A stretch of 63,641 nt of DNA, the filler included, from Folioceros fuciformis (taxonomy: Eukaryota): NCBI GenBank assembly GCA_049999805.1. It is 6 parts of 6 records of this genome, joined end to end, with 100 filler letters (N's around TTAATTAATTAA, not from the genome) between each part and the next. Parts side by side here need not be neighbours in the genome. Positions count along the whole stretch, not along the records: positions 51,110 to 63,641 come from JBNGIO010001394.1; 5 more parts are not named here. One strand, given 5' to 3'. The position numbers and the translations under genes are program-made. Positions 674 to 63,641 of this stretch are shown one piece after another. The stretch's first letter is position 1. Each line of letters begins with the position of its first letter. The notes below the pieces were generated by a model. The model had not been told where the DNA came from, ran no database searches, and saw nothing but the letters and a program-made list of their open reading frames with translations.

Positions 674-3600
674 TCATCCATCCCCGACTAGAAAGCTATG
701 CACCATTCCGTCCTCGTCTGTCCACCAGCTTTGACCTGGCTGCTTCCATGCCCCGATTCGTTTCCGCCTGCCCTGCATCTTCTGTGCCTGCTCCCACATG
801 TGAGCATCGATGTATATGTTCGACATCATCACGTAAGCTGCAGCATCTTTCTTGTCGAGCGTCACTGCTTCATGGAAAGCATGATGCCCCACCTCCACGT
901 TGGTCCACTTTCGGCAGGAACCCAACAGTGTGTGCCATACTGCAGCGTTTGGTGGTGCTGGCATTGTCTGTGCTACCGCCAGGGCTTCATCCAGTTGTCC
1001 TGTACGGCCGAGGAGATCAATCATGCACGTGTAGTGGTCTTCGGATGGAGAGATGCCATACTGACTGCTCATGGACCTGAAGTACTGTTGCCCCTTGCGC
1101 ACAACACCAGCATGACTGCAGGCTGTTAGTACACTAAGAAATGTTATGCTGTCAGGCAGTATGTTGTGCCCTCTCATTCTGGTTAGCAATTCGAAGACCA
1201 ATTCACTGTCTCCGTGACTGGTGTAGCTTGCAATCAGTGCATTCCAGGCGACGATGTCCTTTACGGGCAACGAATCAAACACTTGCTGTGCGTCAATCAT
1301 GCTCCCGGACTTGCCATACATGTTGATCAGACTGCCGGCCACAGACACATCAGCTTGGAGCCCTTGTTCCAGAATCTGAGCATGTAGCTGCCTTCCCACG
1401 TACAAAGCTGCCACAGTTGCACATGCCTGCAGAAGGCACACGAAGGTTACGGAGTTGGGTACAGCCAGGCCTTCATCTTGCATAGCGCCGAAGATACGAA
1501 GGGCTTCCTGCCCCATGCCCTGCTGAGAATATCCTGCTATCATGGAAGTCCAAGTCACCACATCTTTGTGACCAAGCCCGTCAAACACATTTCGTGCACC
1601 TTCCAAGCTGCCACATTTTGCATACATGTTCACTAGACTGTTGCCCACGTACACATCAGCTTGGTGTCCCTGTTCTCTAATTTGCGCATGAATATGCTTT
1701 CCTGTCTCCAGCGCAGGGGTGCCCACATTGGCGCATGCCTGCAGAAGGCACACATACGTCACACTATTGGGAACACTCGAACCTCCTTCATCCATGACAC
1801 GGTAGAGACGGAGGGCTTCTTGGCCCATGCCCTGCTGCGAATATCCTGCTATCATGGCAGTCCATGTCACCTCATTTTTTTCAGCAAGTCCGTCAAACAG
1901 TTTCTGAGCGTCTGCCAAGCTGCCACACTTTGCATACATATGGATCAGACTACTCGCTACAAATACATCAGCTTCAAGCCCTTCTTCTCTGATGTGCGTA
2001 TGAAGCTGCTTACCCTTTGCCAATGCCATGGTGCCCACACTTGCACAGGCCTGCAGAAGGCACACAAAAGTCACAGAATTGGGTGCAGTCAAGCCATCTT
2101 CTTGCATTACAGTGTGGAGACGTAGGGCTTCTTGTCCCATGCCGTGTTGGAAATATGCTGCTATCATGGCAGTCCATGCCACCACAGTTTTGTGACTGAG
2201 TCCATCGAATACTCTCTGAGCGTCGTCCAAGCTTCCACACTTTGCATACATGTTCACCAAGCTGCTGGCTACGAACACATCAGTTCCGTGACCGTGTCTT
2301 ACAATATGCTCGTGAAGCTGCTTCCCCACCTCCAAAGCAACAGTGCCCACGCTTGCACATGCCTGCAGGAGGCACACAAATGTCACAGAATCGGTTACAG
2401 CGATGCCTTCTTCTTGCATCCGATCGTAAAGACGGAGAGCTTCCTGGCCCATGCCCTGCTGGGAATATCCTGCTATCATGGCAGACCACGTCACCGCATC
2501 TTTTTGCCCGAGACCATCAAACACAATCTGAGCATCCCCTAGGCTGCCACACTTAGCATACATGGTCACTAAACTGTTGGCAACAAACACGTCACAATGA
2601 TGCCCCTGTTCTATTATCTGAGCATGAAGATGCTTTCCCTTCTCCAAAGCTAGCGAGCCCACTGTTGCACATGCCTGCAGGAGGCACACAAATGTCACGG
2701 GATCGGGTACAACGATGCCTTCCTCTTCCATTCCACGGAAGACAAGTAGAGCCTCCTGGCCCATGCCCTGCTGGGAATATCCCGCTATCATTGCAGTCCA
2801 GGTGACCACATTTTTTTGGCCAAGACCGTCAAAGACTTTCTTTGCCTCCACCAAGCTCCCACACTTTGCATACATGTTCACCAAACTGTTAGCGACAAAC
2901 ACATCAGTTTGATGGCCACGCTCGTTGATTTGCCCATGAAGCTCCCTCCCCTTATCCAAAGCTGGCTTGCCCACACTTGCACATGCCTGCAGGAGGCACA
3001 TGAAAGTGACAGAGTTGGGCGCAGCAATACCCTCTTCTTCCATCGAACTGTAGAGACGAAGGGCCTCCTGACCCATGCCTTGTTGGGAATATCCTGCTAC
3101 CATCGCAGTCCAAGTCACCACATCTTTTTCCCCAAGTCCGTCAAACACTCTCTGAGCATCATCCAAGCTTCCACATTTTGCGTACATGGTCAGCAAGCAG
3201 TTAGAAGTAAACAAATCAGGCTCGACGCCACTGGCCAACACATCAGCATGCACCTGCTGCCCAGTTTTCAAGTCTGATCCCCTAGCACAAGCCTGAAGGG
3301 CTGCCACAAATACGTGGCCATCCGGCTTCACACCAGAGCTGCGCATCCGATGGTACAGTTCTATGGCCTGCTTATCTTGTCCGTGTTTCACATGAGCATG
3401 GATGATGGCAGACCACGTGAAAGCATCTGGGTTGGCCACTACATCAAAGACATCCATCGCGTCTTGCAACCTACCATGAGAGGCATACATCCGCAGGATG
3501 TGGAAGCCCAGGAACGTATCCGACTGATACCCCTTCTTCACCGTGAAAGCATGGATGCGGCTGCCCAGAACCAGATCCTTCTTCACTACACATTTCTTCA

Positions 3601-3985
3601 GCAACGTGTAAAACAGAGACTTGGAAATACAAAGATTTGTGTTAACCAGAACTTCCAAAGCGGCAACAGATTCAGTGAGACGGCCCTCAAGACATAACCT
3701 GGCCACGGTCTCTGCCGTCACGCCCATACCACAGCCTGAACGGCCAGGATCATCCGGCAAGCTCCTGTCAGGACCCATCTCCATATCCACATCGATATCC
3801 AGAGCAGCAACCTTCATCCCAAAGGTGATGCACGTCCCGACTTGGTTGTGGGTCAATGGTAGATTCCTTAAAATCAAGGAAGCGGGATCTCCCATTCCCG
3901 GTAATCGTTGATTCCACGAAGACTGTCCCCAGCTCGGACCCTTCTGCCATTTGCATGACTGGATTGCACTGCTCCCGACAGTCAT
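674..3985 (-). CDS. PLS-class PPR protein (PPR1), 26 PPR motifs + E1/E2 + WW-type PG box, no deaminase (E+-like organellar RNA-editing factor)
   Basis: Intronless ORF (ORF track begins at GTG 4000; first ATG is 3985). Repeating S (MYAKCGSL), P (VVTWTAMIAGY) and L (VTFVCLLQAC) motifs, then P2-L2-S2 (TACSHAG...HYTCMIDLLGR) and E1/E2. Ends WKQPGQSWWTDEDGMVHSFLVGDG*. Confidence 0.93.
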   Translation of the reverse strand: MTVGSSAIQSCKWQKGPSWGQSSWNQRLPGMGDPASLILRNLPLTHNQVGTCITFGMKVAALDIDVDMEMGPDRSLPDDPGRSGCGMGVTAETVARLCLEGRLTESVAALEVLVNTNLCISKSLFYTLLKKCVVKKDLVLGSRIHAFTVKKGYQSDTFLGFHILRMYASHGRLQDAMDVFDVVANPDAFTWSAIIHAHVKHGQDKQAIELYHRMRSSGVKPDGHVFVAALQACARGSDLKTGQQVHADVLASGVEPDLFTSNCLLTMYAKCGSLDDAQRVFDGLGEKDVVTWTAMVAGYSQQGMGQEALRLYSSMEEEGIAAPNSVTFMCLLQACASVGKPALDKGRELHGQINERGHQTDVFVANSLVNMYAKCGSLVEAKKVFDGLGQKNVVTWTAMIAGYSQQGMGQEALLVFRGMEEEGIVVPDPVTFVCLLQACATVGSLALEKGKHLHAQIIEQGHHCDVFVANSLVTMYAKCGSLGDAQIVFDGLGQKDAVTWSAMIAGYSQQGMGQEALRLYDRMQEEGIAVTDSVTFVCLLQACASVGTVALEVGKQLHEHIVRHGHGTDVFVASSLVNMYAKCGSLDDAQRVFDGLSHKTVVAWTAMIAAYFQHGMGQEALRLHTVMQEDGLTAPNSVTFVCLLQACASVGTMALAKGKQLHTHIREEGLEADVFVASSLIHMYAKCGSLADAQKLFDGLAEKNEVTWTAMIAGYSQQGMGQEALRLYRVMDEGGSSVPNSVTYVCLLQACANVGTPALETGKHIHAQIREQGHQADVYVGNSLVNMYAKCGSLEGARNVFDGLGHKDVVTWTSMIAGYSQQGMGQEALRIFGAMQDEGLAVPNSVTFVCLLQACATVAALYVGRQLHAQILEQGLQADVSVAGSLINMYGKSGSMIDAQQVFDSLPVKDIVAWNALIASYTSHGDSELVFELLTRMRGHNILPDSITFLSVLTACSHAGVVRKGQQYFRSMSSQYGISPSEDHYTCMIDLLGRTGQLDEALAVAQTMPAPPNAAVWHTLLGSCRKWTNVEVGHHAFHEAVTLDKKDAAAYVMMSNIYIDAHMWEQAQKMQGRRKRIGAWKQPGQSWWTDEDGMVHSFLVGDG

Positions 3986-4902
3986 GGCTCGCAAGAGCAC
4001 GGCCCGAGCCTAAGGATCCAAGATGAACACCACCTGCCGCATGAGGCTTGATGGACAAGAGCTTGAAACCACCAGGCAACGCCATCTGACAGGGCACATT
4101 CTTTACTAAGGCTCGATCATGTGTAACCGATTGTAAGGCATAGGTGCAGGGGCACGCACACAATCCCCTTTCAATGTGACATGAAATCTCTGAATATGTC
4201 GTAGGAAATCCTTGTGCTCCTTCACGTCCCAGAGCGCCATGGGACCTGGCAGCGACAGGGACAGGGGCAGTACATGTTTCAACGTCCCCTGCGAGGAACC
4301 TTTCTCTTTTCCGAAGGATAAGCCTCACTCCCCGGTGCAGAGATCACGACACGATGGGTAAACTTGTACAGTCTCCGATGCATAACTACAAATTGAATGC
4401 CCACGTCTGATAGACGCTCCAATTGCGCAGAGAAACAGGGCTTATCCGAGCATGCATGTCCCACAAATGATCCGTTGTTCGAGTAATGAGCTCGCTCCAT
4501 GCAGAGACGGGTAAATGTCGAGAATCTTGCATTGAGAAAGACTAGACCGATCCTCTTATGCCTCCGAGGATCGAATGTTTCCCCAACCTCACTGTTTCTT
4601 GTACACATGCAGACATAGCTTACATGTCGGACAAAAATAGCCGTCCCTTACAGGCGTGTAAAACTGTCTCCTGTACTAATGATCTACAAAAATTCACCTC
4701 ACCCATCCTCAGTAAGCATCAAAGCTCCGAAATCGAGTGTCGAATGGCCCCCGTTTTTTCCTGGTTGTTGTAGCCAGCAGATCTTCCCCCATTTCCTCTC
4801 CTCATGTACCCTCTTTTCTCACGAGAAGGCTACTCAGTACTGGCTTTGGCGCTGACAAGGGCGCATGTTCCTCAGATCCTTCCCACCTGCCCTTCAGATG
4901 GC

Positions 4903-42340: not shown

Positions 42341-45300
42341 ATGAGGCCGGCCTCGGAGGGGCCTCCCGCGACGCTGGCGTTGGGACAGTTTCTCATCAGC
42401 AGGATCACGGAGGTCGCCAGCGCGGCTAAGGACGTGGTGGTGGAGCAAGACAGTTTTTTGCAGTTTGCGGGATACTTGGAGAACATTTTGCCCGTGGTGA
42501 TCGAGCTGTACAAGGGAGGGGATGCCTCCACGGAGGTGCAGGATATCTTGGAGGGGCTGAAAGAGGATCTTGATAATGCCAACGAGTTGATCATCGTGTG
42601 CACCACGAAGAGCAAGATATATCTGCTCACGCACTGTCGGTCCATCCTGAAGCAGCTGGAGAAAATCACGCGTGATGTCGGGGGGAGGTTGCGCGACGTG
42701 CCGCTCGCGGCCGTGCTCGGCCACCAGGATACTAAGGCGTTGGGTGATGGTTTGGCGAGGGACATGCAGAATGTTCATTTCAGGGTGAAGGAGACCGAGG
42801 AGCGGATCTGCCTTACGCTGGAGCGGAAGAACAGTAATATACGGAACGATGTCGCCGTGCAAACTGGGATCTTGATGGATATTGCGAGGTCCGTGGGGGT
42901 GAGTGATCTTGGGAGGAACCCGAGTGCGCTGAAGAATGAGATTGAGTTGCTCAGGTCGGATCTGCAGGATTCCATAGAAGCCTATGACGTTCACATGCTG
43001 GAGGTCATTGATAGTATCTTCGACAGCTGGGTGCAGTTCTATGAGCATCCTTCTCCTTCGGAGGTGTCTGGGCCAGTACACAGGGACCACAGACGGGTGG
43101 AGCCTCTTTACGAAGCGTTCGTGTGCCCCCTGAGCAAGAAAGTTATGCGGGATCCTGTCACGCTGGAGACTGGACAGACCTACGAGAGGGGTGCAATAGA
43201 AAGCTGGTTCAGAGAATGCCAGGAGAATGACAAGGCTCCCGTATGCCCTATGACTGGAAAGCAGCTAGAGAGCACTGTGCTGAAGCCGAGTTTTGCTCTG
43301 CGAAATACCATAGAGGAATGGACGTTTAGGACCGAGGGAGCCAGGATTGATAACGCGCGCCTGGATCTTGTGGACAGAAGTTCTGAAGCTGATAAGTTGT
43401 ATGGTCTGCAAGATCTGCAGGCTCTGTGCATACAGAATAAGTACAACCGGGATAGGATCAGGGACGCTGGCCTCATTCCGCTGATTGCTGAACGTTTGAA
43501 GGATGCTTCTCAAGTGAGATCCTATGCCCTTGTTACTCTGCGCATTCTTGCAGAAGACCACGAGGAGAACCGGGTAAGCTTTTGGCCTTGACAATGTTAG
43601 AGTCACAATACAACAAGTTCGAAGTTGGAGGGTTCTCATTTTGCGTGTGTGTATTGGTATGCTCGTTTGCAGGATGCTGTTGGAAGGACCGATGCTATTC
43701 GAACTTGTGTGAAATGGTTGAATAGGGACTCACCCCAAGAGCGAGAGGAGGCTGCGTCCCTGTTGTTGGAGCTCTCTCATAGTTTACCTCTTTGTGAGAA
43801 GATAGGTGCAACCAATGGAGCTATTTTGATCCTCGTGGGCATGACGAGCAGCAACTCTGTCGACCTAGTCTGTGCAGGTAAGGCAGAAAGAACATTGGAA
43901 AATTTGGAGGGCTGTGACCAAAATGTTCGCCAGATGGCCGAAAATGGGCGCCTGCAACCTCTCCTCAGAAGACTAGTTCGAGGTAAATGTTGTTTTGTGC
44001 GGTAGAAGCTCTTGCCGACTGGGGTGTTTTCCAAGGGTTGTGTGGGGTTTTAGCTGGTCCGTTTGTTGGGAGAAGGTTCTCCCCATGTCCTGATTGCCTC
44101 ATGCTGGCCAGCATCGGCTTCTGTCCACCGTCTGGTTTTTCACTCGTTTGCCGTGGCAGGTTCGGAAGAAATGCAGATCGACATGGCAAATGACCTTGCC
44201 AATGTTCCCTTGACAGGGGAAGGAAAAGCAAGGGTGGTGGAGGTTGGGGGAGCGACTCTTGTTGACATGCTAAGCAGTAAGAAGTTGGCAGCACATGAGG
44301 CTGCACTGAAAGCTTTGAAGAGTCTCTCCATCCTTGAGAGCAATTCGAAGTTACTTATAGATGCTGGAATCCTTCCACCACTTGTGAAGGATCTTTTTGT
44401 ATCGGGAGTTAATCAGGTTCCTATGAGGGTGAAAGAGGTGTCAGCAACAGTTCTTGCACAGGTGGTGAGCTCTGGAGAAGATTTCGAGTTTGTTCCTATT
44501 GATGACAAAGGTAACACCTTGGCGTCGGAGGTGATCATTCATGATTTCCTCCATCTTATCAGTAATACTGGCCCAGCTATCGAGGCAAAGTTGCTTCAGG
44601 TGCTTGTGGGCTTGGCATCTTCTCCAAGTATCCTGACGAAGGTAGTGGCATCCATAAAAAGTGCTGGTGCCATCGTAACCCTGATCCAGTTTTTGGAGGC
44701 CCCACAGAAGGATCTTCGGGGGATTTCTCTCAAGTTACTCAATCGACTGTCGCCTTACATGGGACAAGAGCTGGCAGATGGGCTTAGAGTGACGACACGG
44801 CAGTTGGGAACGCTCGTGAAGCTTCTTGAATCAGCAGGAATTATGGACGAGCAAGCTGCAGCAGCTGGGCTTCTGGCGAATCTTCCACCAACAGATGCGG
44901 ACCTCACACGCGCTCTTTTAGATGAGAATGCTTTGTATGTATTAGTGAGTCGGATCGAGGAACTGAGGAGGGGTACTGTGAGAGGAGCTAGTCGGCTTAC
45001 GAATCCATTCCAAGAAGGCGTAGTGGGAACTCTTGCAAGATTCACCTTTAAGCTGGATGATGCTGATATACTTCACCTTGCCAAGCAGTATGATCTCGTC
45101 GCCCTCTTCACCTCATTACTGAAGTCGAATCTGGATGAAGTGCAGTACTGGTCTGCGATTGCGCTCGAAAATCTGTCGTCAAAGTCAAAAGAGCTATCCG
45201 AGTATCCAGAGGTTCCACAGCCGACGGGCTGCTTCGCCTGCTTCAAGCCTCCGCCACCTCCACCCAGAGGTCTTTGTGTAATTCATGGAGGTCAGTGCTC

Positions 45301-45721
45301 ACCGAACACGTCTTTTTGTCTTCTGGAGGCACAAGCAGTAGTACCTCTTGTTGGTCTACTGGACAGTGCAAACCCTGCCACTGTGGAGGCAGCGATGGGG
45401 GCCCTGTGTACCCTGATCAGGGATGGGGTCGATGTGGAGAGAGGAGTGCGTGTGCTTTTTACTGAGCATGCCTTCCAACCTATCTTGCTAATATTGCAAG
45501 CTCATAGGACAGAGCTTCTGAGAGAGCGGGCTGTGTGGATGGTTGAAAGAATCCTGCGTACCGGAGATATGGCAGGGATGATTTCCGCAGATCCTAACGT
45601 ACATACAGCACTGGTGGACGCTTTCAAATATGGACATTATACTACCCGTCAGCTCGCCGAGGCAGCTTTGAAACACTTGAATAGAATACCAATTTTCTCA
45701 GGTGTGTTCCCCAGGATGTGA
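42341..45721 (+). CDS. PUB44: U-box/ARM-repeat E3 ubiquitin ligase, SAUL1/PUB43-44 type; exons 42341-43573, 43673-43982, 44160-45721 (~1034 aa)
   Basis: U-box EPLYEAFVCPLSKKVMRDPVTLETGQTYERGAIESWF...CPMT...LRNTIEEW; ARM region with HLISNTGPAIEAKLL, GLCVIHGGQCS..SFCLLEA and ERAVWMVERILR; C-terminal ALKHLNRIPIFSGVF. The GT-AG introns preserve the frame. Confidence 0.92.
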
Positions 45722-51009: not shown

Positions 51010-51109
51010 NNNNNNNNNNNNNNNNNNNNNNNNNNNNNNNNNNNNNNNNNNNNTTAATTAATTAANNNNNNNNNNNNNNNNNNNNNNNNNNNNNNNNNNN
51101 NNNNNNNNN
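51010..51109. other. Artificial contig spacer
   Basis: 44N-TTAATTAATTAA-44N. Confidence 0.97.
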
Positions 51110-51879
51110 CGCCCCACTTGCACCACCCAGTCTCAGACTAAAAATGGGCTGGAGCCCATATCGGCCTGCGCCTCCAGTCCCGCGTAAAAAGTCATTTCCT
51201 GCTACTACCGCATGATATGTGGTGATGTAGCAGCAAATGCGCGCGCGTCCTCCTGCCCTTCACAGTCGCACCGTGCCAACACGTTTTCTTGCACCCCTTT
51301 CGCAATTTGACCTGGTCACGGGCATGTCACGGTTGATTGATTCAAAGCAACATGCAGACGTTTCTACCTGTGTGACATGCCCTCCCTTACCAACGGACCG
51401 GCTTGCGATGGAGGAACATTTTCATCAATTCATAATCCTGCCTTTCTGTGATTCAGGATCTTGCAAATCTCCCTTGCTGCTTTCCGTAGAAGCTGATGAT
51501 TCACTTCGCTACCTGCTTCGAAGGACATCTGCTATTTCGGCCAGCCGCTACAGCTTGAGAGGAGGATGAAAACCTTGTGAGCCGCAGCTAGCACCTGCTG
51601 AAGGAAGGTGTAGCAGATCGAGCAGCAAGAAAGGAAGCCATCGCACACGGTAGCATGGAAGCCAGGGTTAAATAGGATGAGGACAAAACATAGAGGACGG
51701 AATTCAACATCAATGCAGAGGCCTCTGCAAGAAAGCAAGTTTGCGGCCCTGAAGCAGTGAGCCTTTCCTGCCGGCTTCCCACCCGAAGAGGCCGATGAAG
51801 CCATCGCGTAGCGTTGCAGGAATGCTTTCGGCACTCGCAGGATAAAATTCTCCTCCGTGGCCGCTGAATCGGGAGAATC

Positions 51880-54800
51880 TCATTCGATTGTACGAGATCT
51901 ACTCCACGTACTCTTGTGTCTACACTTCGGAAAATACCTTCCTAAGCCTTGCTCGACTCCATGTTGCCAGCCAGAAACCAGAAAGCTGTACACCAGTCCG
52001 TCCAGATCTGTCCAACAGGTTTGACCTGGCTCTTTCCAAGCCCTCATTCTTATTCTCCTCGCCTGAATCTCCTGTGCTTGTTCCCACATTTGTGCACCCG
52101 TGAATATATTTGACATCAACACATAAGGTGCGGCATGTTTCTCGTCTACGTTCACTGCTTCACTGAACGCATGGCTTCCCACCTTGACGTTGCTCCACTT
52201 CTGACAAGCACCCAAGAGAGTGTGCCACACATCTGCGTTAGGCTGCACAGGCATTGCCCTTACCAAAGCCAAAGCCTCATCCAGTCGGCCAGCACGGCCT
52301 AGGAGATCTACCATGCAGGCGTAGTGCTCCACCGTGGGAGTGATGCTGTAACGTCTACTCATGCCCTCGAAGTAGTCTCTTCCCTTGTTTACCAGACCAG
52401 AATGGCTGCATACTTTCAACACACTGAGCAACGTGATGGCCGCTGGCTGTATACCATCCTCTCCCATCTTCTCGACCAAGTCAAACACTGCTTCGCTGTT
52501 TCCTTGACAGCTGTAGCCTGCAATCAGCGCGCTCCAGACGGCTACGTCCCTCTCGGACAACGAATCAAATACCTGCTGTGCATCAACCATGCTCCCGGAC
52601 TTCCCGTACATGTTTATCAAACTGCCGGCTACAAGCAAGTCAGATTGAAGCCCCTGTTCTTCAATTTGTGCATGCAACTGCCGTCCCAGATGCAAAGCTG
52701 CTACATTTGCACATGCCTGCAGGAGGCACACAAATGTGACAGAACTGGGAGCAGCCCTGCCTTCTTCTTGCATCGTCCTGTACAGCCGAAGGGCTTCATG
52801 ACCCATGCCCTGCTGGGAATAGGCAGAAATCAGGGCATTCCACGTCACCACAGACTTCGGACCAAGCCCATCAAACACCCTCTGAGCGTCCTCTACGCTG
52901 CCACACTTTGCATACATATTTATCAGACTGCTGATTACAAAAGTATCCCCTTGATATCCTCTTTCTCTAATCTCTGCATGGAGCTGTTTTCCTTTCTCTA
53001 AAGCAACGGTACCTAGGTTTGCACACGCCTGCAGAAGGCAGGCAAATGTCACACAATCAGGTACAATCTCGCTATCTTGTTGCATAGCACGGTAAAGAGA
53101 GAGGGCTTCCTCTCCCATGCCCTGCTGCGAATACCCTGCTATCATGGCATTCCACATGACCACATCCTTTCTAGCAAGTCCATCAAACACTTTCTGAGCA
53201 TCTTCTAGGCTCCCACACTTCGCGTACATGCTCACCAAACTACTGGCTACGAAGACATCCATTTCATATCCTTGTTCCCTTGCTTGTTCATGAAGCTGCT
53301 TCCCCTTCTCCAGAGTTGGGGTGCCCACACCTGCACATGCTTGCAGGAGGCACACAAATGTCACAGAATCTGGGACATCCATACCACTCTCTTGCATAAC
53401 ACTGTAGAGACGAAGGGCCTCCTGCCCCATGCCCTGCTGAGAATACCCTGCTATTAGAGCAGTCCACGTCACAACATCTTTCTGATCAAGTCCGTCAAAC
53501 ACGCTTTGAGCTTCTGCCAAGCTGCCACACTTTGCATACATGTTTACCAGAGTGTTCCCCATAAACACATCAACTTGGAGTCCCTGTTCTGTAATTTGTG
53601 CATGAAGCTGCTTTCCTGTCTCCAGTGCCAGGGCGCCAACAGATGCACACGCTCTCAGGAGGCTCACAAGCGTCATTGAATCCGGTACAGCTAAGCCCTC
53701 TTCCCGCATGTTTCTGTACAGATGAAGGGCTTCCTGGGCCCTGCCTCGATGGCAATATCCCGCAATTAAAGCAGTCCATGTCGCCACCTCCTTCTGACCA
53801 AGTCCATCAAACACTGTTTGTGCGTCTTCTAAGCTGCTGCTCTTTGCATACATATTTACCAAACTGGAGGCTATGTGCACATCATCTTGAAGTCCTTGTT
53901 CTCTGATCTCTGTATGAAGCTGCTTCCCCTTGTCCAATGCCAGGAAGCCCACACTTGCACATGCCTGCAGAAGGCAGGCAAATGTAACAGAATTGGGTAC
54001 AGCAGTACCCTCTTCTTGCATGGCACTATAGAGACGAAGGGCTTCCTGGCCCATGCCTTGATGAGAATATCCTGCAATAAGGGCAGTCCACGTTACCACG
54101 TCTTTTTGACCGAGTCCGTCAAACACTCTCTGAGCATCTTCAAGGCTGCCACATTTTGCATACATGTTGATGATGTTGTTGGCTACTACTAGATCAGCCT
54201 GATGTTCTTGCTCTCTGATCTGAGCATGAAGCTTCTTCCCTATCTCCAACGCTGTGACACCCACACTTGCACATGCCTGTAGGAGGCACATCCACGTAAC
54301 ACAATTGGGTACAGCGATGCCTTCCTTTTGCATGGCAGTGTAGAGCCGAAGGGCTTCCTGTCCCAAGCCCTGCTGGGTGTACCCCGCAATAAGAGCAGTC
54401 CATGTCACCACATCCTTTTGAGCAAGTCCGTCAAACACTGTCTGAGCATCTTCCAGGCTGCCACACTTTGCATACATGTTCACCAAACTACTGGCTATAA
54501 ACACATCAGCTTCATATCCTCTCTCTCTAATCTCTGCATGGAGCTGCTCCCCCTTCCTCAAAGCTGCGGTGCCCACAATCGCACATGCCTGCAGGAGACA
54601 CAAAAATGTGACGGAATTGGGTACAGCCAGGCCCTCCTCTTCCATAGCACTGTGGAGACGAAGGGCTTCCTGCCCCATCCCCCGTTGAGAGTACCCAGCC
54701 ATTAAAGCAGTCCATGTTACCACATCTTTCTGATGCAGCCCATCAAACACTCTTCGAGCGTCTTCCAAACTGCCACACTTGGCATACATGTCGACCAAGC

Positions 54801-55479
54801 CATTACAGACAAACAGATTAGGCTGCACTCCACTGGCCAGTACATCAGCATGCACCTGCTGCCCAGCTGTCAAGTCTGATCCCCTTGCGCAAGCCTGAAG
54901 GGCCGCCACAAATACGTGGTCATCTGGCTTCACACTTGACCTGCACATCTGCTGATAGAGTTGTATGGCCTGCCCGTCGTTGCCATGTTTAACGTGCGCA
55001 GAAATTATGGACGACCACATGAAAACATCTGGTTGGGTCAGAGTGAACACGTCCATCGCCTCTTGCAACCTGCCATGAGAAGCATACATTCGCAGGATGT
55101 GATTGCACAAGAACGTGTCCGACTCATAACCTTTTTTGACAGTGACAGCATGAATGCGGCGACCCAGGACAATATCCTTCGCCACTGCACATTTCTTCAG
55201 GATAGTGTACATAAGAGATTTAGGCACAGCAGAGTTCTGCTGCACCATGACACCTACGGCCTCCACGGCCTCAAGGACATGGCCCTGATCACATAGCTTG
55301 TTCACGGTTTCAGCGGTCACGCCACATTGCTGTCTAGAAAGCCTGCAAGAGGTGTTACAACACGTGTCCCCAGCTGGGATAACATTTCGGCGGGCCGCAT
55401 CTCTTGCGTAAGTGATGCACCTTGAGACCTGGTTGTTTGCCAAGTTCTGGCTTCTCGTTGTCAGGCCTCCTGCAGGCAT
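51880..55479 (-). CDS. PLS-class PPR protein (PPR2), 29 PPR motifs + E1/E2 + degenerate WW-type PG box, no deaminase
   Basis: Intronless ORF (open to 55602; first ATG 55479), same architecture as PPR1. C-terminus WKEPGQTCWTDLDGLVYSFLVS plus an unrelated tail. Start codon uncertain. Confidence 0.9.
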   Translation of the reverse strand: MPAGGLTTRSQNLANNQVSRCITYARDAARRNVIPAGDTCCNTSCRLSRQQCGVTAETVNKLCDQGHVLEAVEAVGVMVQQNSAVPKSLMYTILKKCAVAKDIVLGRRIHAVTVKKGYESDTFLCNHILRMYASHGRLQEAMDVFTLTQPDVFMWSSIISAHVKHGNDGQAIQLYQQMCRSSVKPDDHVFVAALQACARGSDLTAGQQVHADVLASGVQPNLFVCNGLVDMYAKCGSLEDARRVFDGLHQKDVVTWTALMAGYSQRGMGQEALRLHSAMEEEGLAVPNSVTFLCLLQACAIVGTAALRKGEQLHAEIRERGYEADVFIASSLVNMYAKCGSLEDAQTVFDGLAQKDVVTWTALIAGYTQQGLGQEALRLYTAMQKEGIAVPNCVTWMCLLQACASVGVTALEIGKKLHAQIREQEHQADLVVANNIINMYAKCGSLEDAQRVFDGLGQKDVVTWTALIAGYSHQGMGQEALRLYSAMQEEGTAVPNSVTFACLLQACASVGFLALDKGKQLHTEIREQGLQDDVHIASSLVNMYAKSSSLEDAQTVFDGLGQKEVATWTALIAGYCHRGRAQEALHLYRNMREEGLAVPDSMTLVSLLRACASVGALALETGKQLHAQITEQGLQVDVFMGNTLVNMYAKCGSLAEAQSVFDGLDQKDVVTWTALIAGYSQQGMGQEALRLYSVMQESGMDVPDSVTFVCLLQACAGVGTPTLEKGKQLHEQAREQGYEMDVFVASSLVSMYAKCGSLEDAQKVFDGLARKDVVMWNAMIAGYSQQGMGEEALSLYRAMQQDSEIVPDCVTFACLLQACANLGTVALEKGKQLHAEIRERGYQGDTFVISSLINMYAKCGSVEDAQRVFDGLGPKSVVTWNALISAYSQQGMGHEALRLYRTMQEEGRAAPSSVTFVCLLQACANVAALHLGRQLHAQIEEQGLQSDLLVAGSLINMYGKSGSMVDAQQVFDSLSERDVAVWSALIAGYSCQGNSEAVFDLVEKMGEDGIQPAAITLLSVLKVCSHSGLVNKGRDYFEGMSRRYSITPTVEHYACMVDLLGRAGRLDEALALVRAMPVQPNADVWHTLLGACQKWSNVKVGSHAFSEAVNVDEKHAAPYVLMSNIFTGAQMWEQAQEIQARRIRMRAWKEPGQTCWTDLDGLVYSFLVSGWQHGVEQGLGRYFPKCRHKSTWSRSRTIE

Positions 55480-55847
55480 GCGCAGATCTGGGAGTTCTGC
55501 ATCTGGGCAGGCAGCTACATGCGCAGATTCAAGAGCAAAAGCTTCAAGTCCTGGATCTCTTGGGTGGTGCGGGTCCAATGAATGGGGCACTAGCTTTGGC
55601 AAGGACCATGCTTGTATTGCCCAATGCTGTAGTTCGGCATACTCTTCCGGGCACCTTTCGCAAGTGGAGTGACGGGGAGGTGGGATGCCACTCGTTCAAT
55701 GATGCAATTATTCCGGGCATTTGTCGAAAGTGGAGTAACGTCGAGATGGCACGCCACTCGTTCAATGAAGCTGGACAAGAAGGATGCTGCAGAACATGTG
55801 TTGATGTCGAATATAGACACCATGGACAGACCTGGACGAACATGTGT

Positions 55848-56050
55848 TTAGTTTCTTTGTTTGGGATCAGCGTATCCCAATGGCTTCATTGTCGGGCATA
55901 GTTTCTTTGTTTGGGATCAGTGGTATCCCAATGGCATCATTGTCGGGCATAGTTTCTTTGTATGGGATCAGTGGTATCCCAATGGCTTCATTGTCGGGCA
56001 TAGTTTCTTTGTTTGGGATCAGTTGTATACCAATGGCTTCATTGTCGGGC
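55848..56050. repeat. 51-bp tandem repeat x4 derived from the PPR3 terminal codons (HSFFVWDQ)
   Basis: CATAGTTTCTTTGTTTGGGATCAGTGGTATCCCAATGGCTTCATTGTCGGG units. Confidence 0.9.
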
Positions 56051-56200
56051 AGACTGCAGGCATATGTGAATCATTGGCAGCTATATATAATGTGTTGTAT
56101 GCATAATATCTGCCCTTCATCCTGTGCATAATATCTTCCCTTCATCCCGTGCATAATATCTTCCCACATCCTGTACATATTCTCGTCCCTTCATCTCGGT

Positions 56201-56466
56201 TGCATGAGGCTTGCACCACCTTTCAGGCAACTGCACTAGGATCTTTCTGGCAACGACATGCATGAGACTTGCATCACCTTTCAGGCAACTACATGCATGA
56301 GGCTTGCACCACCTTTCAGGCAACTGCACTAGGACCTTTCTGGCAACTACATGCATGAGGCTTGCACCACCTTTCAGGCAACTGCACAAGGACCTTTCTG
56401 GCAACTACATGCATGAGGCTTGCACCACCTTTCAGGCAACTGCACGAGGACTTTTCTGGCAACTAC
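56201..56466. repeat. ~58-bp tandem repeat (4-5 copies)
   Basis: CATGCATGAGGCTTGCACCACCTTTCAGGCAACTGCACTAGGACCTTTCTGGCAACTA units. Confidence 0.85.
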
Positions 56467-56785
56467 ACTAGGTCCAGACCTGGTGGTGGTCGGCGCTCAG
56501 TGGTACTTGACCACCGTTATGTTCGAACTAACACGATTGTACTTCGAATTGGCCCACTAGGCCAATCAAGTTTGCTGCTCAAATTACCTAATTAGAGAAG
56601 CTTGTGACTATGTCCACTTCCCGGCCAAGTTCATCTATGTTAGACGCATTGAGCTTCAGTCGGCTGCCACTTATAGTTGGATGTCACTTGCATGCCGGGG
56701 CTACGGTTGTGCATGCCAGGGCTATGGTTGTCTGGATCGTGTTCGCAGGTCTTGTAGGAAGTCATTTCTTGCATAAGTGATGCAC

Positions 56786-56890
56786 CTTGAGAGCTGGTTA
56801 TTTGCCAAGTTCTGGCTTCACTTGAGACCTGGTTGTTTGCCAAGTTCTGGCTTCACTTGAGACCTGGTTGTTTGCCAAGTTCTGGCTTCA
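56786..56890. repeat. 35-bp tandem repeat x3 in the hairpin loop; a fourth copy lies at 55421-55454
   Basis: CTTGAGACCTGGTTGTTTGCCAAGTTCTGGCTTCA. Confidence 0.9.
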
Positions 56891-57283
56891 CCTGCTAACA
56901 CGCTCCAGACAACCATGGCCTCGGCCTGCAAGCGACAGCCACCTATAGGTAGCGGCCACCTGATGCTCAATGCATCTGTATGACCCAGATGAGCTTGGCC
57001 AGGAGGTGGACATAGCCACGAGCTTCAGTAATTGGAGCAGCAAACTTAATCGACCCAGCAGGCCAATTCAAACCCAATGCAACGCAACTGTGTTAGTTCG
57101 AACAGAAGGATGTCAGGTACCACCTAGCGCCGACCACCGCCGGGTCTAGGCCTAGTGCAGTTACCAGAAATGTCGTGCCAGCCTTATGCGACCGGGATGA
57201 AGGAAGATATTATGCATACAGCACAATCTGAACAGCTGCCAATGATTCACATATGCCTGCAGTCTGCCTGGACAATGAAGCCA

Positions 57284-60200
57284 TTAGCCATTGAGATACC
57301 GCTGATCCCAAACAAAGAAACTATGCACATGTCCGTCCATGTCTGTCCACCAAGTCCGACCCGGCTCCTTCCATGCCCCGATTCTTGTTCTCCTGGCCTG
57401 CATCGCCTCTGCATGCTCCCACATCTGGGCACCGGTGTATATATTCGACATCAACACATATGCTGCAGCATCCTTCTTGTCCAGCTTCACTGCTTCATTG
57501 AACGAGTGGCATCCCACCTCCACGTTACTCCACTTTCGACAAGAGGCTAGGAGAGTATGCCAAATTACAGCATTGGGCAATACAGGCATGGTCCTTGCCA
57601 AAGCTAGTGCCTCAGTCAATCGACCCGCACGACCCAGAAGATCCACCATGCATGTGTAGTGCTCCACGGTGGGACTGAGGCCATAGTCTCTGGTCATCGC
57701 CCTGAAGTACTCCGTCCCCTTTTTCACTAGACCTACATGACTGCATACTGTTAGTATACTAACAAATGTGAGACCGACTGGCTGTATCCTGTCCTTCTTC
57801 ATTCTCTGGATCAAATAAAAAACAGCTTCACTGTCCCCTTGGCAGCTGTAGCCAGAAATCAGCGCACTCCAGGTGGCAGCGTCTCTTTCATGTAACGCGT
57901 CAAATACCTGCTGTGCATCAATTATGCTCCCGCACTTTCCGTACATGTGTATCAAACTGCTAGCTACAAGCAGATCGACTTGAAGCTTTTGCTCTTGAAT
58001 CTGCGCATGCAGCTGCCTCCCCAGATGCAGAGCTCCCAGATCTGCACATGCCTGCAGGAGGCACACGAATGTCACGGAATCAGGTGCAATTTTGTCCTCT
58101 TCCTGCATGGACGTGTAAGCACGAAGGGCTTCTTGGCTCAGGCCCTGCTGGGAATATGCTGCAATCATGGCATTCCATGCCACAACATGTTTTGCGCCAA
58201 GCCCCTCAAACACCCGGCCAGCATCCTCGATGCTGCTACACTGCGCGTACATGTTCACCAAACTGCTGGCTAGAAACGCATCAACTTGGTATCCTCTTTC
58301 TCGAATATGGGCATGAAGCTCTTTTCCCTTCTCCGAAGCTGAGCAGCCCAAGCTCGAACATGCCTGCAGGACGCACACAAATGTTCTCGAATCTGGTATG
58401 GTCATGCCCTCGTCCTGCATGGCACTGTACATCCAAAGGGCTTCATGGCCCCTGCCTTGCTGCGAATATCCTGCTATGATGGCATTCCAGGTCCCCACAT
58501 CTTTCCTACTGAGTCCATCAAACATTCTTTGAGCATCTTCCAGATTGCCACACTTTGCGTACATGTTCACCAAACTGCTGGATACGAAGGTCTGAGCTTC
58601 ATGTCCATGCTCTCTGATTGCAGCATGAAGCAGCCTACCCTTGTTGAGTGCCAGGGGGCCTATCCTTGCACATGCCTGCAGGAGGGACACAAATGTCAGG
58701 GGATCTGGTACAGCCATCCATTCTTGCATCACATGGTAAAGACGAAGGGCTTCTTGACCCCTTCCCTTTTGAGAGTACCCTGCTATCATAGCATTCCATG
58801 TCACCACATCCTTTTCGACCAGTCCGTCAAACACACTCCGGGCATCCTCTAGGCTTCCACACTTTGCGTACATGTTTACCAAACTGTTAGCCACAGAGAT
58901 ATCAGCTTGGTATCCTGCTTTCCTTATTTGCGCATGAAGATGCTTGCCCTCAGCTAGAGCTGGGGCGCCTATACTTGCGCATGCCTGCAAGAGGCACACA
59001 AACGTCGCAGAATTGGGTGCAGCCATTCCTTCTTGCTGCATAACAGTGTAGAGGTCCAGCGCTTCCTGCCCCAGGCTCTGCTGCGAATACCCTGCTATCA
59101 TTGCATTCCATGTCACCACATCCTTGCAATCAAGGCCATCAAACACTCTCCGAGCGTCCTCAAGGCCACCACACTTGGCATACATGTTCATCAAACTGCT
59201 AGCAACAAACCCATCAGATTGATATCCTTGTTCTCTAATCTGTGCATGAAGCTGCTTCCCCATGTCCAGAGCTTGGGTGCCCATACTTGCACACGCCTGC
59301 AGGAGGCACACAAATGTCACTGAATCAGGGAAGCTGATGCCTTCTTCGAGCATCGCATTGTAGAGACAAAGCGCCTCCTGCCCCATGCCCCGCTGAGAAT
59401 ACCGTGTTATCATGGCATTCCACATCACCACATCTTTGTGACCAAGTCTGTCAAACACCTTTCGAGCAAGTTCCAAGCTGCCACACTTAGCATACATGTC
59501 TACCAAACTGTTGGCGAGCGACACATCAGCCTCAAGTTGATGCTCTTGAATTTGAACATGAAGCTGCTTTCCCTTGTCCAGGGCAGGGGTACCTACACTT
59601 GCACAGGCCTGCAGGAGGCACATGTATGTCACGGCATCTGGTACGACCATGCCATCTACTTGCATTGCACTGTAAAGACCAAGGGATTCCTGAGACATGC
59701 CCCGCTGGAAATATCCTGCAATTAGAGTAGTCCATGTTACTACATCTTTTCGACCAAGTCCATCAAACAGCTTTTGAGCATCTTCCAAGCTCCCACATTT
59801 TGCATACATGTTTACCAAGCTGTTGGCTACAAGCAGATCAGCCTCGTACCCTTGTTCTCTGATTCGTGTATGAAGCTCCTGTCCCTTCTCCAACGCCAGG
59901 CTGCCCATACTTGCACATGCCTGCAGGAGGCAAACATATGTCACCACATTGGGGGCAGTGAGGCCTTCTCTTAGCATATCACTGAGGAGACGAAGGGCTT
60001 CCACGGCCATGCCCTGCTGGACATATCCGGCTATCATCGCATTCCACGTCACCACATCCTTTTCCTCATGTCCATTGAACACTCTTTGAGCGTCCTCTAT
60101 GCTGCCACACTTTGCATACATGTCTACCAAACTGTTGGCTACAACGACATCGGCTTCATGTCCACTTCCTGTTATCTGCACATGAAGCTGCTTCCCCTTC

Positions 60201-61138
60201 CCCAAAGCGGGGTTACCCAGACTTGAACATGCCTGCAAGACGCACACAAATGTAACGGAATTGGGGACAGCTTTGCCCTCTTCTTGCATAGCATCAAAGA
60301 GACGAAGAGCCTCCTGCTGCATACCCTGGTGACAGTACCCTGCAATCAGAGCAGTCCATGAGACCACATCCTTCTGAGCAAGCCCATCGAACACCCTCTG
60401 AGCTTCTTCCAAGCTGCCACACTTTGCATACATGTCCAACAAGCAATTCCAGACAAACAAGTCCTGCTCAACCCCACTGGCCAACACGTGGGCATGCACC
60501 TCTTGTCCAGTTTTCAGGTCTGTCCTGTTCGTGCAAGCCTGAAGGGCTGCAACAAATACATGTCCATCTGGCTTCACACTTGACCTGTGCATCTGATGAT
60601 AGAGTTCTAAGGCCCGCTTGTCTTCACCATGCCTAACATGCGCAGCAATTATGGCGGAGAAGGTAAAAGCATCGGGTTTGGCAACTTGGGTGAACACATC
60701 CATCGCGTCTTGCAACCTGCCATAAGAAGCATGCATTCGCAGGATGTGGTTGCTGAGGAACGTGTCCGATCCACGCCCCTGCTTCACTACCAAAGCATGG
60801 ACACGACGACCCAAAACAAGATCCTTCTTGACTATACAACTTTTGAGAACAGTATAGAACAAAAACTTGGGAACACAAGATTCTGTCTGCACCAGCACTC
60901 CCAAAGCTTCGACGGCCGGCGTAAGATGGCCCTCAAGACATAGTTCACTCACGGTTTGGGCCACTACACCACTTTCATATCCTTCAGGCCTGCGAGGCCC
61001 AGGGCCATGCAGCAAGCTCCGGTTGAATTTCGAGCACGGTGGACCCAGTGGGCACGTGGAGCGTCGACCGGCACCCAAGCTGGAAGACCCCATTCCAGCC
61101 AGGCACCCACTTGGACAGGCTGCTTGCAGGTGTGACAT
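57284..61138 (-). CDS. PLS-class PPR protein (PPR3), 32 PPR motifs + E1/E2 + WW-type PG box, no deaminase
   Basis: Intronless 1284-aa ORF from a true ATG, with a Ser/Gly/Arg-rich N-terminus compatible with a transit peptide. Ends WKEPGRTWWTDMDGHVHSFFVWDQRYLNG*. Confidence 0.94.
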   Translation of the reverse strand: MSHLQAACPSGCLAGMGSSSLGAGRRSTCPLGPPCSKFNRSLLHGPGPRRPEGYESGVVAQTVSELCLEGHLTPAVEALGVLVQTESCVPKFLFYTVLKSCIVKKDLVLGRRVHALVVKQGRGSDTFLSNHILRMHASYGRLQDAMDVFTQVAKPDAFTFSAIIAAHVRHGEDKRALELYHQMHRSSVKPDGHVFVAALQACTNRTDLKTGQEVHAHVLASGVEQDLFVWNCLLDMYAKCGSLEEAQRVFDGLAQKDVVSWTALIAGYCHQGMQQEALRLFDAMQEEGKAVPNSVTFVCVLQACSSLGNPALGKGKQLHVQITGSGHEADVVVANSLVDMYAKCGSIEDAQRVFNGHEEKDVVTWNAMIAGYVQQGMAVEALRLLSDMLREGLTAPNVVTYVCLLQACASMGSLALEKGQELHTRIREQGYEADLLVANSLVNMYAKCGSLEDAQKLFDGLGRKDVVTWTTLIAGYFQRGMSQESLGLYSAMQVDGMVVPDAVTYMCLLQACASVGTPALDKGKQLHVQIQEHQLEADVSLANSLVDMYAKCGSLELARKVFDRLGHKDVVMWNAMITRYSQRGMGQEALCLYNAMLEEGISFPDSVTFVCLLQACASMGTQALDMGKQLHAQIREQGYQSDGFVASSLMNMYAKCGGLEDARRVFDGLDCKDVVTWNAMIAGYSQQSLGQEALDLYTVMQQEGMAAPNSATFVCLLQACASIGAPALAEGKHLHAQIRKAGYQADISVANSLVNMYAKCGSLEDARSVFDGLVEKDVVTWNAMIAGYSQKGRGQEALRLYHVMQEWMAVPDPLTFVSLLQACARIGPLALNKGRLLHAAIREHGHEAQTFVSSSLVNMYAKCGNLEDAQRMFDGLSRKDVGTWNAIIAGYSQQGRGHEALWMYSAMQDEGMTIPDSRTFVCVLQACSSLGCSASEKGKELHAHIRERGYQVDAFLASSLVNMYAQCSSIEDAGRVFEGLGAKHVVAWNAMIAAYSQQGLSQEALRAYTSMQEEDKIAPDSVTFVCLLQACADLGALHLGRQLHAQIQEQKLQVDLLVASSLIHMYGKCGSIIDAQQVFDALHERDAATWSALISGYSCQGDSEAVFYLIQRMKKDRIQPVGLTFVSILTVCSHVGLVKKGTEYFRAMTRDYGLSPTVEHYTCMVDLLGRAGRLTEALALARTMPVLPNAVIWHTLLASCRKWSNVEVGCHSFNEAVKLDKKDAAAYVLMSNIYTGAQMWEHAEAMQARRTRIGAWKEPGRTWWTDMDGHVHSFFVWDQRYLNG

Positions 61139-61928
61139 GATCTGGTTGTGCCCAACTGGTCTCCAGAATTGGGCTCATGGAATAAGGCACAGGAGCATGA
61201 TGTGCAGATGCTGATGGCACCGACCGGCCCTCACAGAGGTTCAGATGTCGGGAATGTTGTCTGAGAGTACCTGCCTAGTCTCATTATAGATGACCAGGCA
61301 GGCCTCATGGTTCTCAACAACTCGCACATTTTGCGTCCTCCCATCACATGCCAGGCCCCAGGACATGTTGGACCCCGTGAGCGAAACCTTTCTCTCCGGA
61401 CTGCAATAGAGACAGGAGCCCCAACTACTACCACTGCCCCACGACTCTTTGGCAGGTGTAAGGAATGGTGTACGAGTGCCGAGCGCTGGGTTTCAACTTG
61501 GACATCCATCTATTGGGTTTAAGACAAGGGAGAAAATACCAGCGAGGAACTTGCCAAGGCCCCAGGCGGGATACAACACTTGCCCTTGGCTTGTAGGCCG
61601 CGCTGTGTCATTCAGAGCTGTCACCCCTTCCAACTCTGAGGTATTCTGAGGTATCAATTTTGGGTTGCCATGCCTAGAATTTGGCAAGGCCTTGCGATCG
61701 GTATCTGTTTCTGCGATATTCAAGTTTGCTTTTAATGGAAAATATATAAGTTAGTATGAACTGACAATATAGATTAGAGTTATATAAATTGAGTAGAATA
61801 AGACAATTGTATGGAGATGTAGACTGCTGAGACGGAGATATATGGAGAGTGCTATAATCCATACTATATTGCCCTAGTCTTGTCTCTTTCCTGTCTTGTC
61901 TCTTGCTTTGTGCAACCACAGTCTCAAG

Positions 61929-62052
61929 TCTCAATTAGACGTATTGTGCAACCACAATCTCGCGTTCTTCTAGCAAATTGATACCAAGGTTCTCAATTAG
62001 ACGTATTGTGCAACCACAATCTCACGTTCTTCTAGCAAATTGATACCAAGGT
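61929..62052. repeat. 62-bp tandem duplication
   Basis: TCTCAATTAGACGTATTGTGCAACCACAATCTC(G/A)CGTTCTTCTAGCAAATTGATACCAAGGT x2. Confidence 0.9.
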
Positions 62053-62699
62053 TGTCCAAACCTATGTCTGCCTAGGTGGTGTTATCTACAAGCCAACACT
62101 CCAGAATATGAAGTTCTTCTATGATGGCAAATCGATGCCAAGGTTGTGTTAACCTATGTCTACCTATGTGGTGTTATGTACGGCCCAACACTCCAATGGA
62201 AGCTCTCTACCTCTACTTGTGTTCTTAAGGGTTTTGCCATTGATATCTAGGACTTGTGTTCTTGAGGGTATATCATCGACATCTAGGGTGCGGAAACAAT
62301 GCTCTCATATGCACAATCGAGGACATCCCCACCCAATAATGGTTGTTCAACATAGTTGCAGCTCCTTCAACAATGCATGCAACAAAGAGTTTTGGGAATC
62401 CTATTTCTCACTTGATGACTACTTCAAGGTGGAGGAAGTTCAAACATTCTTTCTTAGGCTCCACTTTACATGAAAGAGGTTCGTCCCCTTTGGCCATCTT
62501 GAGTTCGCCACCTACCTACTTGAACTTGAGGGATTGTTCCATCTAACCAACTTCCTACACAACCTCTATTCTTTGGAGGATGCATGGATTAGCTAACACA
62601 TTATGTCTGGAGTTACACTTATTTTAGGAGTGAGAGCAAGAGGATCTAATGTTATGTTCAAATCAAGCATGAGTGGATATGAGCACCCTTGAGCTACCT

Positions 62700-62930
62700 A
62701 TCAACAAAGCTTCAAGCCTCCTTAACAAAAAAGAATGAGGGATGTCACCAAGGATCGAGTTGAGACATTGCACAAGACATGTTGCTGTCCAAATTTGCTC
62801 AACCACTGACGAGAAATTTTGGATGAGGTAGCTAGCCATGAGATATCTATATTCACAAAATAGGTGACCACGGAATATATTCCTTTCCTAGAATACGTTG
62901 TTGTTTCTTCCACGAAGCACAACTAAGAAG
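62700..62930 (+). mobile_element. Highly degraded Gypsy-type RT fragment
   Basis: Remnant EILDEVASHEISIF resembling the Gypsy RT segment before the catalytic D-x-x-x-G-Y motif; broken frames. Confidence 0.3.
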
Positions 62931-63641
62931 AAGGGCCACTATCACTCCATGTGGGTTGTGCTGTACAAGCTACGCCTTCTGGGGCTGGGCTTGGCATCGC
63001 ACCGAAGGAGGAGAGCTGGTCACAAGACATTCGTCGGACTTTTTTTTATTTTTTGTTTTATATTTTCTGCCTGATTTGATATGGAGTGGGGATATGATTT
63101 TGGAAATGGTAGCATATACAATGCAGATCGTGATGACTGGAAATGAGTGTTCACGTGAAGACGGGGTGAGGTGTGACGTCGAGGAGGCAGCGACGAAAGG
63201 TGCCTGAAACCAACTGGGACCGGCAACTGGGGCGTGTGAAACTTCCGAGGAGCAGCCCGGGCCCGGCTTCCCAAAAGCCGGAACCGGATTAGCTGGCTCC
63301 GACGTGGTAATCAGCGTCTTGCACGTGTCCGAAGCGATATCTGAATCGAGGCCTGGATTGGGCCGTTGGGCCACCGCAGAAGAGTCGCGTTCACACCTTC
63401 CCGCGAGGGAGGAATGACTGACCGCGTTCCAAGGCCTCGCTTCTCTCGCGTCACAGATAAAGATCCGCCGCCGAATCTTTTGCGTGGCTGTGCATTCTTC
63501 CGCCCTTCTTTTATTCCGCCGTGGCTTTACCCGGTCCCTAGGTTTCGTGGACTAGGTTGCTCCTCACGACCCGGTTTCACTTTCGTGTTTTTATTCAGCG
63601 TGAAAGGCCATCACTTGGCTCTCCTTGGCCGGGGTCGGGAC

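Follow-up and report, generated by a model that had tools for sequence, protein, structure and literature searches.

A fold-back duplication of the 3' end of a PLS-class PPR gene in Folioceros fuciformis, probably a neutrally decaying relic

PPR genes of the P class are targets of miR161 and of small interfering RNAs (siRNAs) derived from TAS loci. Inverted duplication of target genes is a known origin of such regulators; in the Arabidopsis survey, 16 gene-similar microRNA (MIRNA) loci support this route, PPR-targeting miR161 being one of them and listed in Table 1, and large fold-backs of recent origin are proposed to go through a phase of producing heterogeneous siRNAs (PMC1790633, Fahlgren et al. 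2007). The inverted-repeat siRNA (ir-siRNA) loci IR71 and IR2039 are described as near-perfect palindromes of >1 kb, and MIRNA hairpins as typically <300 nt (10.1101/238691). In Marchantia polymorpha, a stem-loop in the MpPPR_66 transcript yields a self-targeting microRNA, Mpo-miR11692.1 (PMC4788410), and a self-regulating PPR gene is therefore not unprecedented in a bryophyte. Here we analyze a window of 63,641 nucleotides (six joined parts, taken as one stretch) from Folioceros fuciformis, assembly GCA_049999805.1, in which the gene PPR3 is followed, on the side of its paralogue PPR2, by a long inverted copy of its own 3' end. A sequence-only reading of this DNA had proposed a hairpin-siRNA or proto-MIRNA locus controlling the PPR family, citing inverted duplication as an established origin of such loci with miR161 as the PPR case. 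We find that the locus is probably a neutrally decaying relic of a fold-back duplication within a tandem array of PLS-class, E-type PPR genes.

A repeat search of positions 54000-60000 returned 24 inverted pairs, 15 of which (I1-I15) are collinear pieces of a single large palindrome, and the BLAST blocks concur in making 55465-56750 an inverted copy of 56890-58062, as the sequence-only reading had it (Table 1). Further details of the geometry that it gave were also recovered: the outermost 86 nt are identical at 82 positions, the loop, put at ~140 bp, measures 139 nt between the inner ends, and a reported deletion of ~330 bp corresponds to a right-arm stretch (57646-57976, 331 nt) that has no partner in the left arm. 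A second right-arm stretch without a partner covers 57350-57433 (84 nt). The tandem expansions that had been noted are confined to the left arm and the spacer, with none detected in 56892-58100. With arms of 1286 nt (left) and 1173 nt (right) around the 139-nt spacer, the stems are longer than the loop, and roughly a third of each arm is unpartnered (415 nt on the right side and ~436 nt on the left, the latter being either tandem array or unaligned). The palindrome is far beyond chance, with BLAST E-values down to 1e-45 and a z of about -38 for the predicted fold, and the 850 positions over which the left arm aligns to the PPR3 tail and flank carry the similarity well past one small-RNA site.

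Table 1. Genes, palindrome components and other features, in positions of the whole window
Feature	Position	Strand	Remarks
PPR3	57284..61138	-	Intact PLS-class PPR gene of 1284 codons with E motif; ends just past the PG box (open reading frame/translation and Pfam)
PPR2	51880..55479	-	Paralogous PLS/E PPR gene; extent counted from the first in-frame ATG
PPR1	674..4009	-	Third paralogue with the same architecture, ending after the PG box; served as outgroup
X	55398..55454	-	57-nt piece of the PPR2 5' region; direct repeat in the spacer (93%, E 8e-18)
Filler	55455-55464		10 nt between X and the left arm
Left arm	55465..56750	+	Non-coding inverted copy; coding-derived 55465-55885, flank-derived 55886-56750
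Spacer (loop)	56751..56889	.	12-nt filler 56751-56762, then direct copy of X, 56763-56819
Right arm	56890..58062	-	Last 779 nt of PPR3 coding sequence (57284-58062) and 394-nt 3' flank (56890-57283)
Arm block	55465-55550 vs 57977-58062		82/86 (95%) complementary, E 6e-34
Arm block	55552-55706 vs 57645-57491		87%, E 1e-45
Arm block	55721-55821 vs 57542-57434		86% (BLAST/repeat pairs)
Arm block	55823-55885 vs 57349-57286		91% (BLAST/repeat pairs)
Arm block	55998-56131 vs 57326-57184		84% (BLAST/repeat pairs)
Arm block	56449-56710 vs 57174-56909		76% (BLAST/repeat pairs)
Arm block (inner ends)	56710-56750 vs 56930-56890		85% (BLAST/repeat pairs)
Six tandem arrays	left arm and spacer only		66 nt x1.9; 51 nt x4.0; 25 nt x3.9; 58/93 nt x3.3/2.0; 21 nt x2; 35 nt x3.0
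51-nt x4.0 array	55849..56051	+	94% matches; from the stretch pairing with 57287-57326
58/93-nt array	56201..56467	+	95-97% matches; from the stretch pairing with 57151-57203
PLS-repeat sites complementary to 55465-55492	54572-54597; 58976-58995; 59280-59307; 59600-59619; 59904-59931		
U-box and Armadillo-repeat E3 ligase gene	42269-43591, 44054-45721	+	PUB43-like by the names of its homologues; apparently two exons or frames
Open frame with Pol polyprotein beta-barrel domain	33093-33698	-	PF22936; probably a retroelement fragment

What was copied is the 3' end of PPR3, including, as had been suggested, the C-terminal region that the paralogues have in common. The right arm encodes PPR3 residues ~1026-1284, with the last PLS motifs, the Pfam E motif (1203-1263) and the PG-box stub, and runs on into the 3' flank, whose 394 nt match the left arm alone in BLAST comparisons within the window. 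Over the stretch common to the paralogues, BLAST identity of the left arm is 95% and 87% with PPR3 vs 78% with PPR2 or PPR1, and the arm was therefore copied from PPR3 after the paralogues had split. An origin by local inverted duplication of the PPR3 3' end, as first proposed, is supported. The event can be placed in time as well. Over their last 250 codons the three genes differ from one another at a synonymous divergence (dS) of ~1.0-1.1, with a ratio of nonsynonymous to synonymous divergence (dN/dS) of 0.15-0.21, so that they are old paralogues under purifying selection; set against a dS of ~1, the 9-16% divergence of the arms makes the duplication about an order of magnitude more recent than the split of PPR2 and PPR3. 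The tandem arrays, 94-97% alike internally, are younger than the arms.

PPR1, PPR2 and PPR3 all match Pfam PPR families, show a repeat period of 312 nt (~104 residues), carry one E motif each near the C-terminus, and end a few codons beyond a PG-box-like 'W(K)EPG..W......H.F' stretch; none of their proteins has a Pfam match to the DYW deaminase (PF14432). A decayed DYW domain in the PPR3 3' flank was considered and rejected. With stops read as X, the three frames of the flank and of the left arm contained no PPR or DYW family in Pfam, and tblastn queries made from the last 170 residues of 17 relatives, 16 of which have a DYW-type domain as their C-terminus, matched the PG-box stub only (E down to 4e-06), the best match past the PPR stops having an E of 0.09 and lying on the wrong strand. 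As no DYW family or remnant follows the stub, the genes are PLS-class, E-type and truncated after the PG box, a form called 'E+'.

In manually anchored global alignments, with coding-derived and flank-derived blocks treated apart, the coding-derived blocks are identical at 368/405 positions (90.9%) and the flank-derived blocks at 374/445 (84.0%), with a further 26 gap letters. Identity is lowest where neither arm codes, and the stem is therefore worst exactly where no other constraint acts. Such a pattern is expected if the copy drifts neutrally and nothing but its PPR3 coding role constrains the right arm, and a maintained stem would predict the opposite. Polarizing the 37 differences of the coding part with PPR2 and PPR1 assigned 19 (and 4 more probably) to the left arm and 5 (and 2 more probably) to PPR3, leaving 7 ambiguous, and 17 of the 19 left-lineage changes fall at codon positions 1 or 2. 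Read in the PPR sense, the left arm is scattered across three frames with stops and frameshifts, and its 161-codon open frame matches no Pfam family; the copy thus combines the disabled frame and the excess of unconstrained changes that mark a pseudogene fragment.

Changes that would preserve pairing through G:U wobble gave no strand-specific structural signature, numbering 37 for a minus-strand RNA and 32 for a plus-strand RNA. In the coding-derived part transitions outnumber transversions 20:17, and in the flank-derived part 49:22. Decay of the arms through methylation was tried as a separate candidate and set aside, the observed-to-expected CpG ratios of the left arm (0.50) and the right flank (0.55) not being below those of the PPR coding sequences (0.47-0.55). 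Decay is directed toward the left arm, and selection on pairing has left no signature. The proposal of a maintained silencing module is accordingly not supported: pairing is poorest in the unconstrained part, about a third of each arm is unpaired, and wobble bias is absent.

The layout of the locus suggests how the copy may have arisen. Along the plus strand the order is PPR2, X, 10 nt, the inverted copy, 12 nt, X (x3), the original segment and the rest of PPR3. X adjoins the outer end of the left arm, so that direct copies of X flank the inverted segment with short fillers at the joints; the spacer copy is 93% identical to 55398-55454, and its 35-nt end is tripled (56786-56891, 97%). Replication template switching, known as fork stalling and template switching or microhomology-mediated break-induced replication (FoSTeS/MMBIR), lies behind fold-back rearrangements of the duplication-inversion (DUP-INV) type. 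A direct duplication that brackets an inverted segment, together with short fillers, fits two such switches. During replication or repair, synthesis would have left the PPR2 5' region at X, jumped to the opposite strand at 58062, run back along the tail and 3' flank of PPR3 as far as 56890, and then switched a second time, back to X, to give the series X, inverted copy, X, original. The non-coding left arm would since have undergone roughly neutral decay by substitutions, two deletions and expansions through slippage, with the right arm staying constrained solely where it codes for PPR3; a hairpin RNA or siRNAs, if any, would be an unselected by-product of read-through and would mostly match PPR3 itself. 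From these data we infer both the template-switch mechanism and the lack of function. Capture by a Pack-MULE- or Helitron-like element was set aside, as copy and source adjoin in one palindrome and a flanking repeat of 57 nt is too long for a target-site duplication; no dedicated search for terminal inverted repeats was made.

Over the PPR repeat arrays, contig depth summed at 95% likeness reaches 100-2000 vs ~10 in the flanks and arms (51200-63641), and ~2400 contigs from a single run were placed on these 12 kb; closely related PLS repeats must therefore form a very large family in this genome. A genome report on the hornwort Anthoceros angustus describes large expansions of PLS-class PPR genes, with PPR genes making up 7.9% of predicted genes, 9.8% of genes in tandem clusters, and many tandem arrays in other expanded families (PMC7027989). 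Rearrangement debris is expected in such arrays.

Several points weigh against the account of a neutral relic formed by template switching. A complete tail-to-tail gene copy may have been made and have lost its 5' part later, although this would leave the duplicated X unexplained. The polarity test draws on just 30 polarizable sites. Moreover, a young inverted duplication can yield siRNAs without being selected to do so; given ten predicted helices of 20-42 bp and 48 left-arm 21-mers that match PPR3 perfectly, an effect on PPR3 is therefore possible. Finally, a check of six motifs, plant signals being degenerate, gave no minus-strand hexamer of the AAUAAA type from the PPR3 stop to the spacer, and the first one past the stop lies at 56043, inside the left arm, which leaves room for read-through.

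One alternative holds that the arm was exapted as the 5' end of PPR2, with the start codon and the leader or promoter coming from the arm and/or the spacer, and the leader, antisense to PPR3, forming a natural-antisense pair with it in trans. We regard this as doubtful; it is, moreover, compatible with the relic reading. PPR2 has a long minus-strand reading frame (51880-55602, 1240 codons) that remains open up to 55695, and the rest of the gene is intact and subject to purifying selection. The first ATG in frame (55479-55477, minus strand) sits within the left arm, 13-15 nt from its outer end, and DNA homology between PPR2 and PPR3 starts only at 55349/60996. The PPR1 frame continues for ~60 codons upstream of its X-like stretch, with its first Met ~53 codons upstream, and at the matching point the PPR2 frame runs directly into the arm. 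PPR2 may therefore have exchanged its original start for another in the rearrangement, and its ancestral 5' end seems to have been lost. If the first in-frame ATG is used, the PPR2 mRNA would have to start within the arm, and part of it would then be antisense to the PPR3 tail, as the sequence-only reading had supposed; of its functional idea, this antisense leader is the part best supported by the sequence. Against exaptation, PPR2 may start further downstream or possess an unseen 5' exon, and its N-terminal similarity to PPR1 is weak (18/67 identities for the X-encoded peptide, E 2e-05 in a single comparison).

The proposed hairpin-siRNA or proto-MIRNA locus, in which a PPR3 read-through transcript folds on the left arm and Dicer-like processing gives siRNAs that dampen PPR3 in cis and perhaps other PPR genes in trans, we consider unlikely. 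Its predicted structure is indeed very stable. When the 2701-nt minus-strand RNA from 58100 to 55400 was folded, as had been suggested for the locus, and compared with seven dinucleotide shuffles, its minimum free energy was -1478.2 kcal/mol vs -915.1 +/- 14.8 for the shuffles. Of the 1023 pairs in the predicted structure, 678 link one arm with the other; they lie in 66 helices, of which the longest unbroken ones, with G:U counted, measure 42, 38, 37, 30, 28, 27, 26, 25, 22 and 20 bp, so that a read-through PPR3 transcript could form the long imperfect stem that had been envisaged. The plus-strand RNA reaches nearly the same energy (-1465.7). The reading also draws on the Arabidopsis route from inverted duplication to MIRNA and siRNA loci (PMC1790633) and on the bryophyte precedent of MpPPR_66 (PMC4788410).

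The complementarity that such siRNAs would exploit is largely that of the copy to its source. The left arm contains 1266 21-mers, of which 48 have a perfect match in the PPR3 coding sequence, 147 a match with <=1 mismatch and 325 one with <=3; at 0, <=1, <=2 and <=3 mismatches, the corresponding counts are 0, 0, 5 and 17 for PPR2 and 0, 2, 12 and 32 for PPR1. Within the window, control of the PPR family thus reduces to possible self-targeting of PPR3, and the broader claim does not find support. Furthermore, pairing shows no sign of having been kept (above), the model requires ~1.8 kb of read-through beyond the PPR3 stop, and the inverted-duplication model presupposes a nearby functional promoter (PMC1790633), for which PPR3 read-through is the sole candidate here. 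The long ir-siRNA loci are described as near-perfect palindromes (10.1101/238691), and the aligned blocks of this locus are 84-91% identical.

A combination of both ideas, in which the fold-back is a live source of small RNAs and the PPR2 leader pairs with the PPR3 tail, coupling the two genes through hairpin or natural-antisense siRNAs, we judge quite unlikely. We found no account of PLS-class PPR genes under small-RNA (hairpin or siRNA) control in the open-access papers searched, and a coupled PPR2/PPR3 pair would, if true, be the first such case, caught early after its birth by inverted duplication. Were siRNAs made at all, the model of MIRNA birth would extend from the P-class PPR genes of flowering plants to a PLS-class editing-factor family in a non-seed plant, and nuclear RNA silencing could tune organellar RNA editing capacity.

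That the inversion is an assembly artefact, produced by a chimeric or fold-back long read, is very unlikely: the two arms are 9-16% diverged and set apart by large indels, where a read artefact would have near-identical ones, and the contig evidence points the same way. Contigs of public runs were placed on 51200-63641, a joint being counted as bridged with at least 31 letters on each side; two of the runs (X1, X2) come from one sample, which may be the source of the assembly, and a third (X3), from another study, is the sole independent run. Difference-free contigs from the two studies cover left-arm-specific sequence at 55521-55901 (X2, X3) and 55994-56230 (X3), and an X3 contig, 56416-56830, bridges the joint of arm and spacer at 56750 with 335 and 80 letters on either side. 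In favour of an artefact, no single contig crosses the whole palindrome centre, where the 35-nt repeats break short-read graphs, and the contig 56862-57263 (X1, X2) has 28 letters to the left of 56890, below the 31-letter rule. The independent run had been guessed to be RNA; its summed depth over the multi-copy PPR repeats follows that of the two DNA runs, its cover of flanks and arms is alike at ~8-14, and we therefore regard this run as probably DNA. Cover is missing from it in 62405-63234, against ~10 in the DNA runs, a hole that by itself proves nothing about transcription.

Some further observations concern the PPR repeats and the remainder of the window. The outer 20-28 nt of the left arm (55465-55492) are 81-95% complementary to one motif in many PLS repeats (Table 1); this motif codes for LLQACA and overlaps two palindromic sites, CTGCAG and GCATGC, and complementarity of the left arm to the family at large is confined to this stretch. 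The best protein relatives of PPR3 are 58% and 50% identical to it, and named relatives, from lycophytes, ferns, mosses, liverworts and conifers, reach <=46% (Diphasiastrum). These DYW-less E-type PPR genes make up a tandem family, and no named seed plant of the protein collection compared is a close relative of the plant that bears them. The U-box/Armadillo gene (42269-45721) is alike, at 57-61% identity, to conifer, liverwort, moss and lycophyte proteins. Both comparisons point to a land plant distant from all named genomes of the collection, plausibly a seed-free one. Paired runs of 44 Ns with 12 bases between them occur at 10391-10490, 31676-31775, 34625-34724, 42040-42139 and 51010-51109 and look more like masked stretches than assembly gaps.

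Combined, these results make the locus a clean and datable fold-back duplication in a fast-expanding tandem PPR array. Fold-back events can remodel the 5' end of a neighbouring gene, here perhaps the start codon of PPR2. For annotation, it would be wrong to call the left arm a gene, and the PPR2 start needs care. A regulatory role of the locus is unsupported, and the locus is an ordinary case of a known kind that would not surprise a specialist.

Set beside the known systems, the locus has features of several. Like loci of the MIR161 type (PMC1790633), and as in the MIR161/MIR163 type of birth, it has fold-back arms with extended similarity to a targetable gene family, which is PPR in both cases. 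Unlike them, its arms are ~1.2 kb rather than a few hundred nt or less, its predicted fold-back spans 2.6 kb, far from the short hairpin typical of MIRNA loci, and the copy lies directly behind its source, a PLS/E-type gene, instead of at a separate locus. It shares with IR71 and IR2039 (10.1101/238691) a stem of >1 kb that is longer than its loop and whose processing, if it were transcribed, would be imprecise; it departs from their near-perfect complementarity, with 90.9% and 84.0% identity in its aligned blocks and about a third of each arm left without a partner. As in MpPPR_66 (PMC4788410), a PPR transcript of a non-seed plant would have a built-in stem-loop able to target its own mRNA, MpPPR_66 being a PPR-SMR gene and not PLS-class, and the present gene a PLS/E-type one. 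Established FoSTeS/MMBIR cases differ in that the putative mechanism is here read from the layout. With DUP-INV and template-switch rearrangements in general, the locus shares an inverted copy that abuts its source, a direct duplication of the adjoining X, fillers at the joints and neutral decay of the copy.

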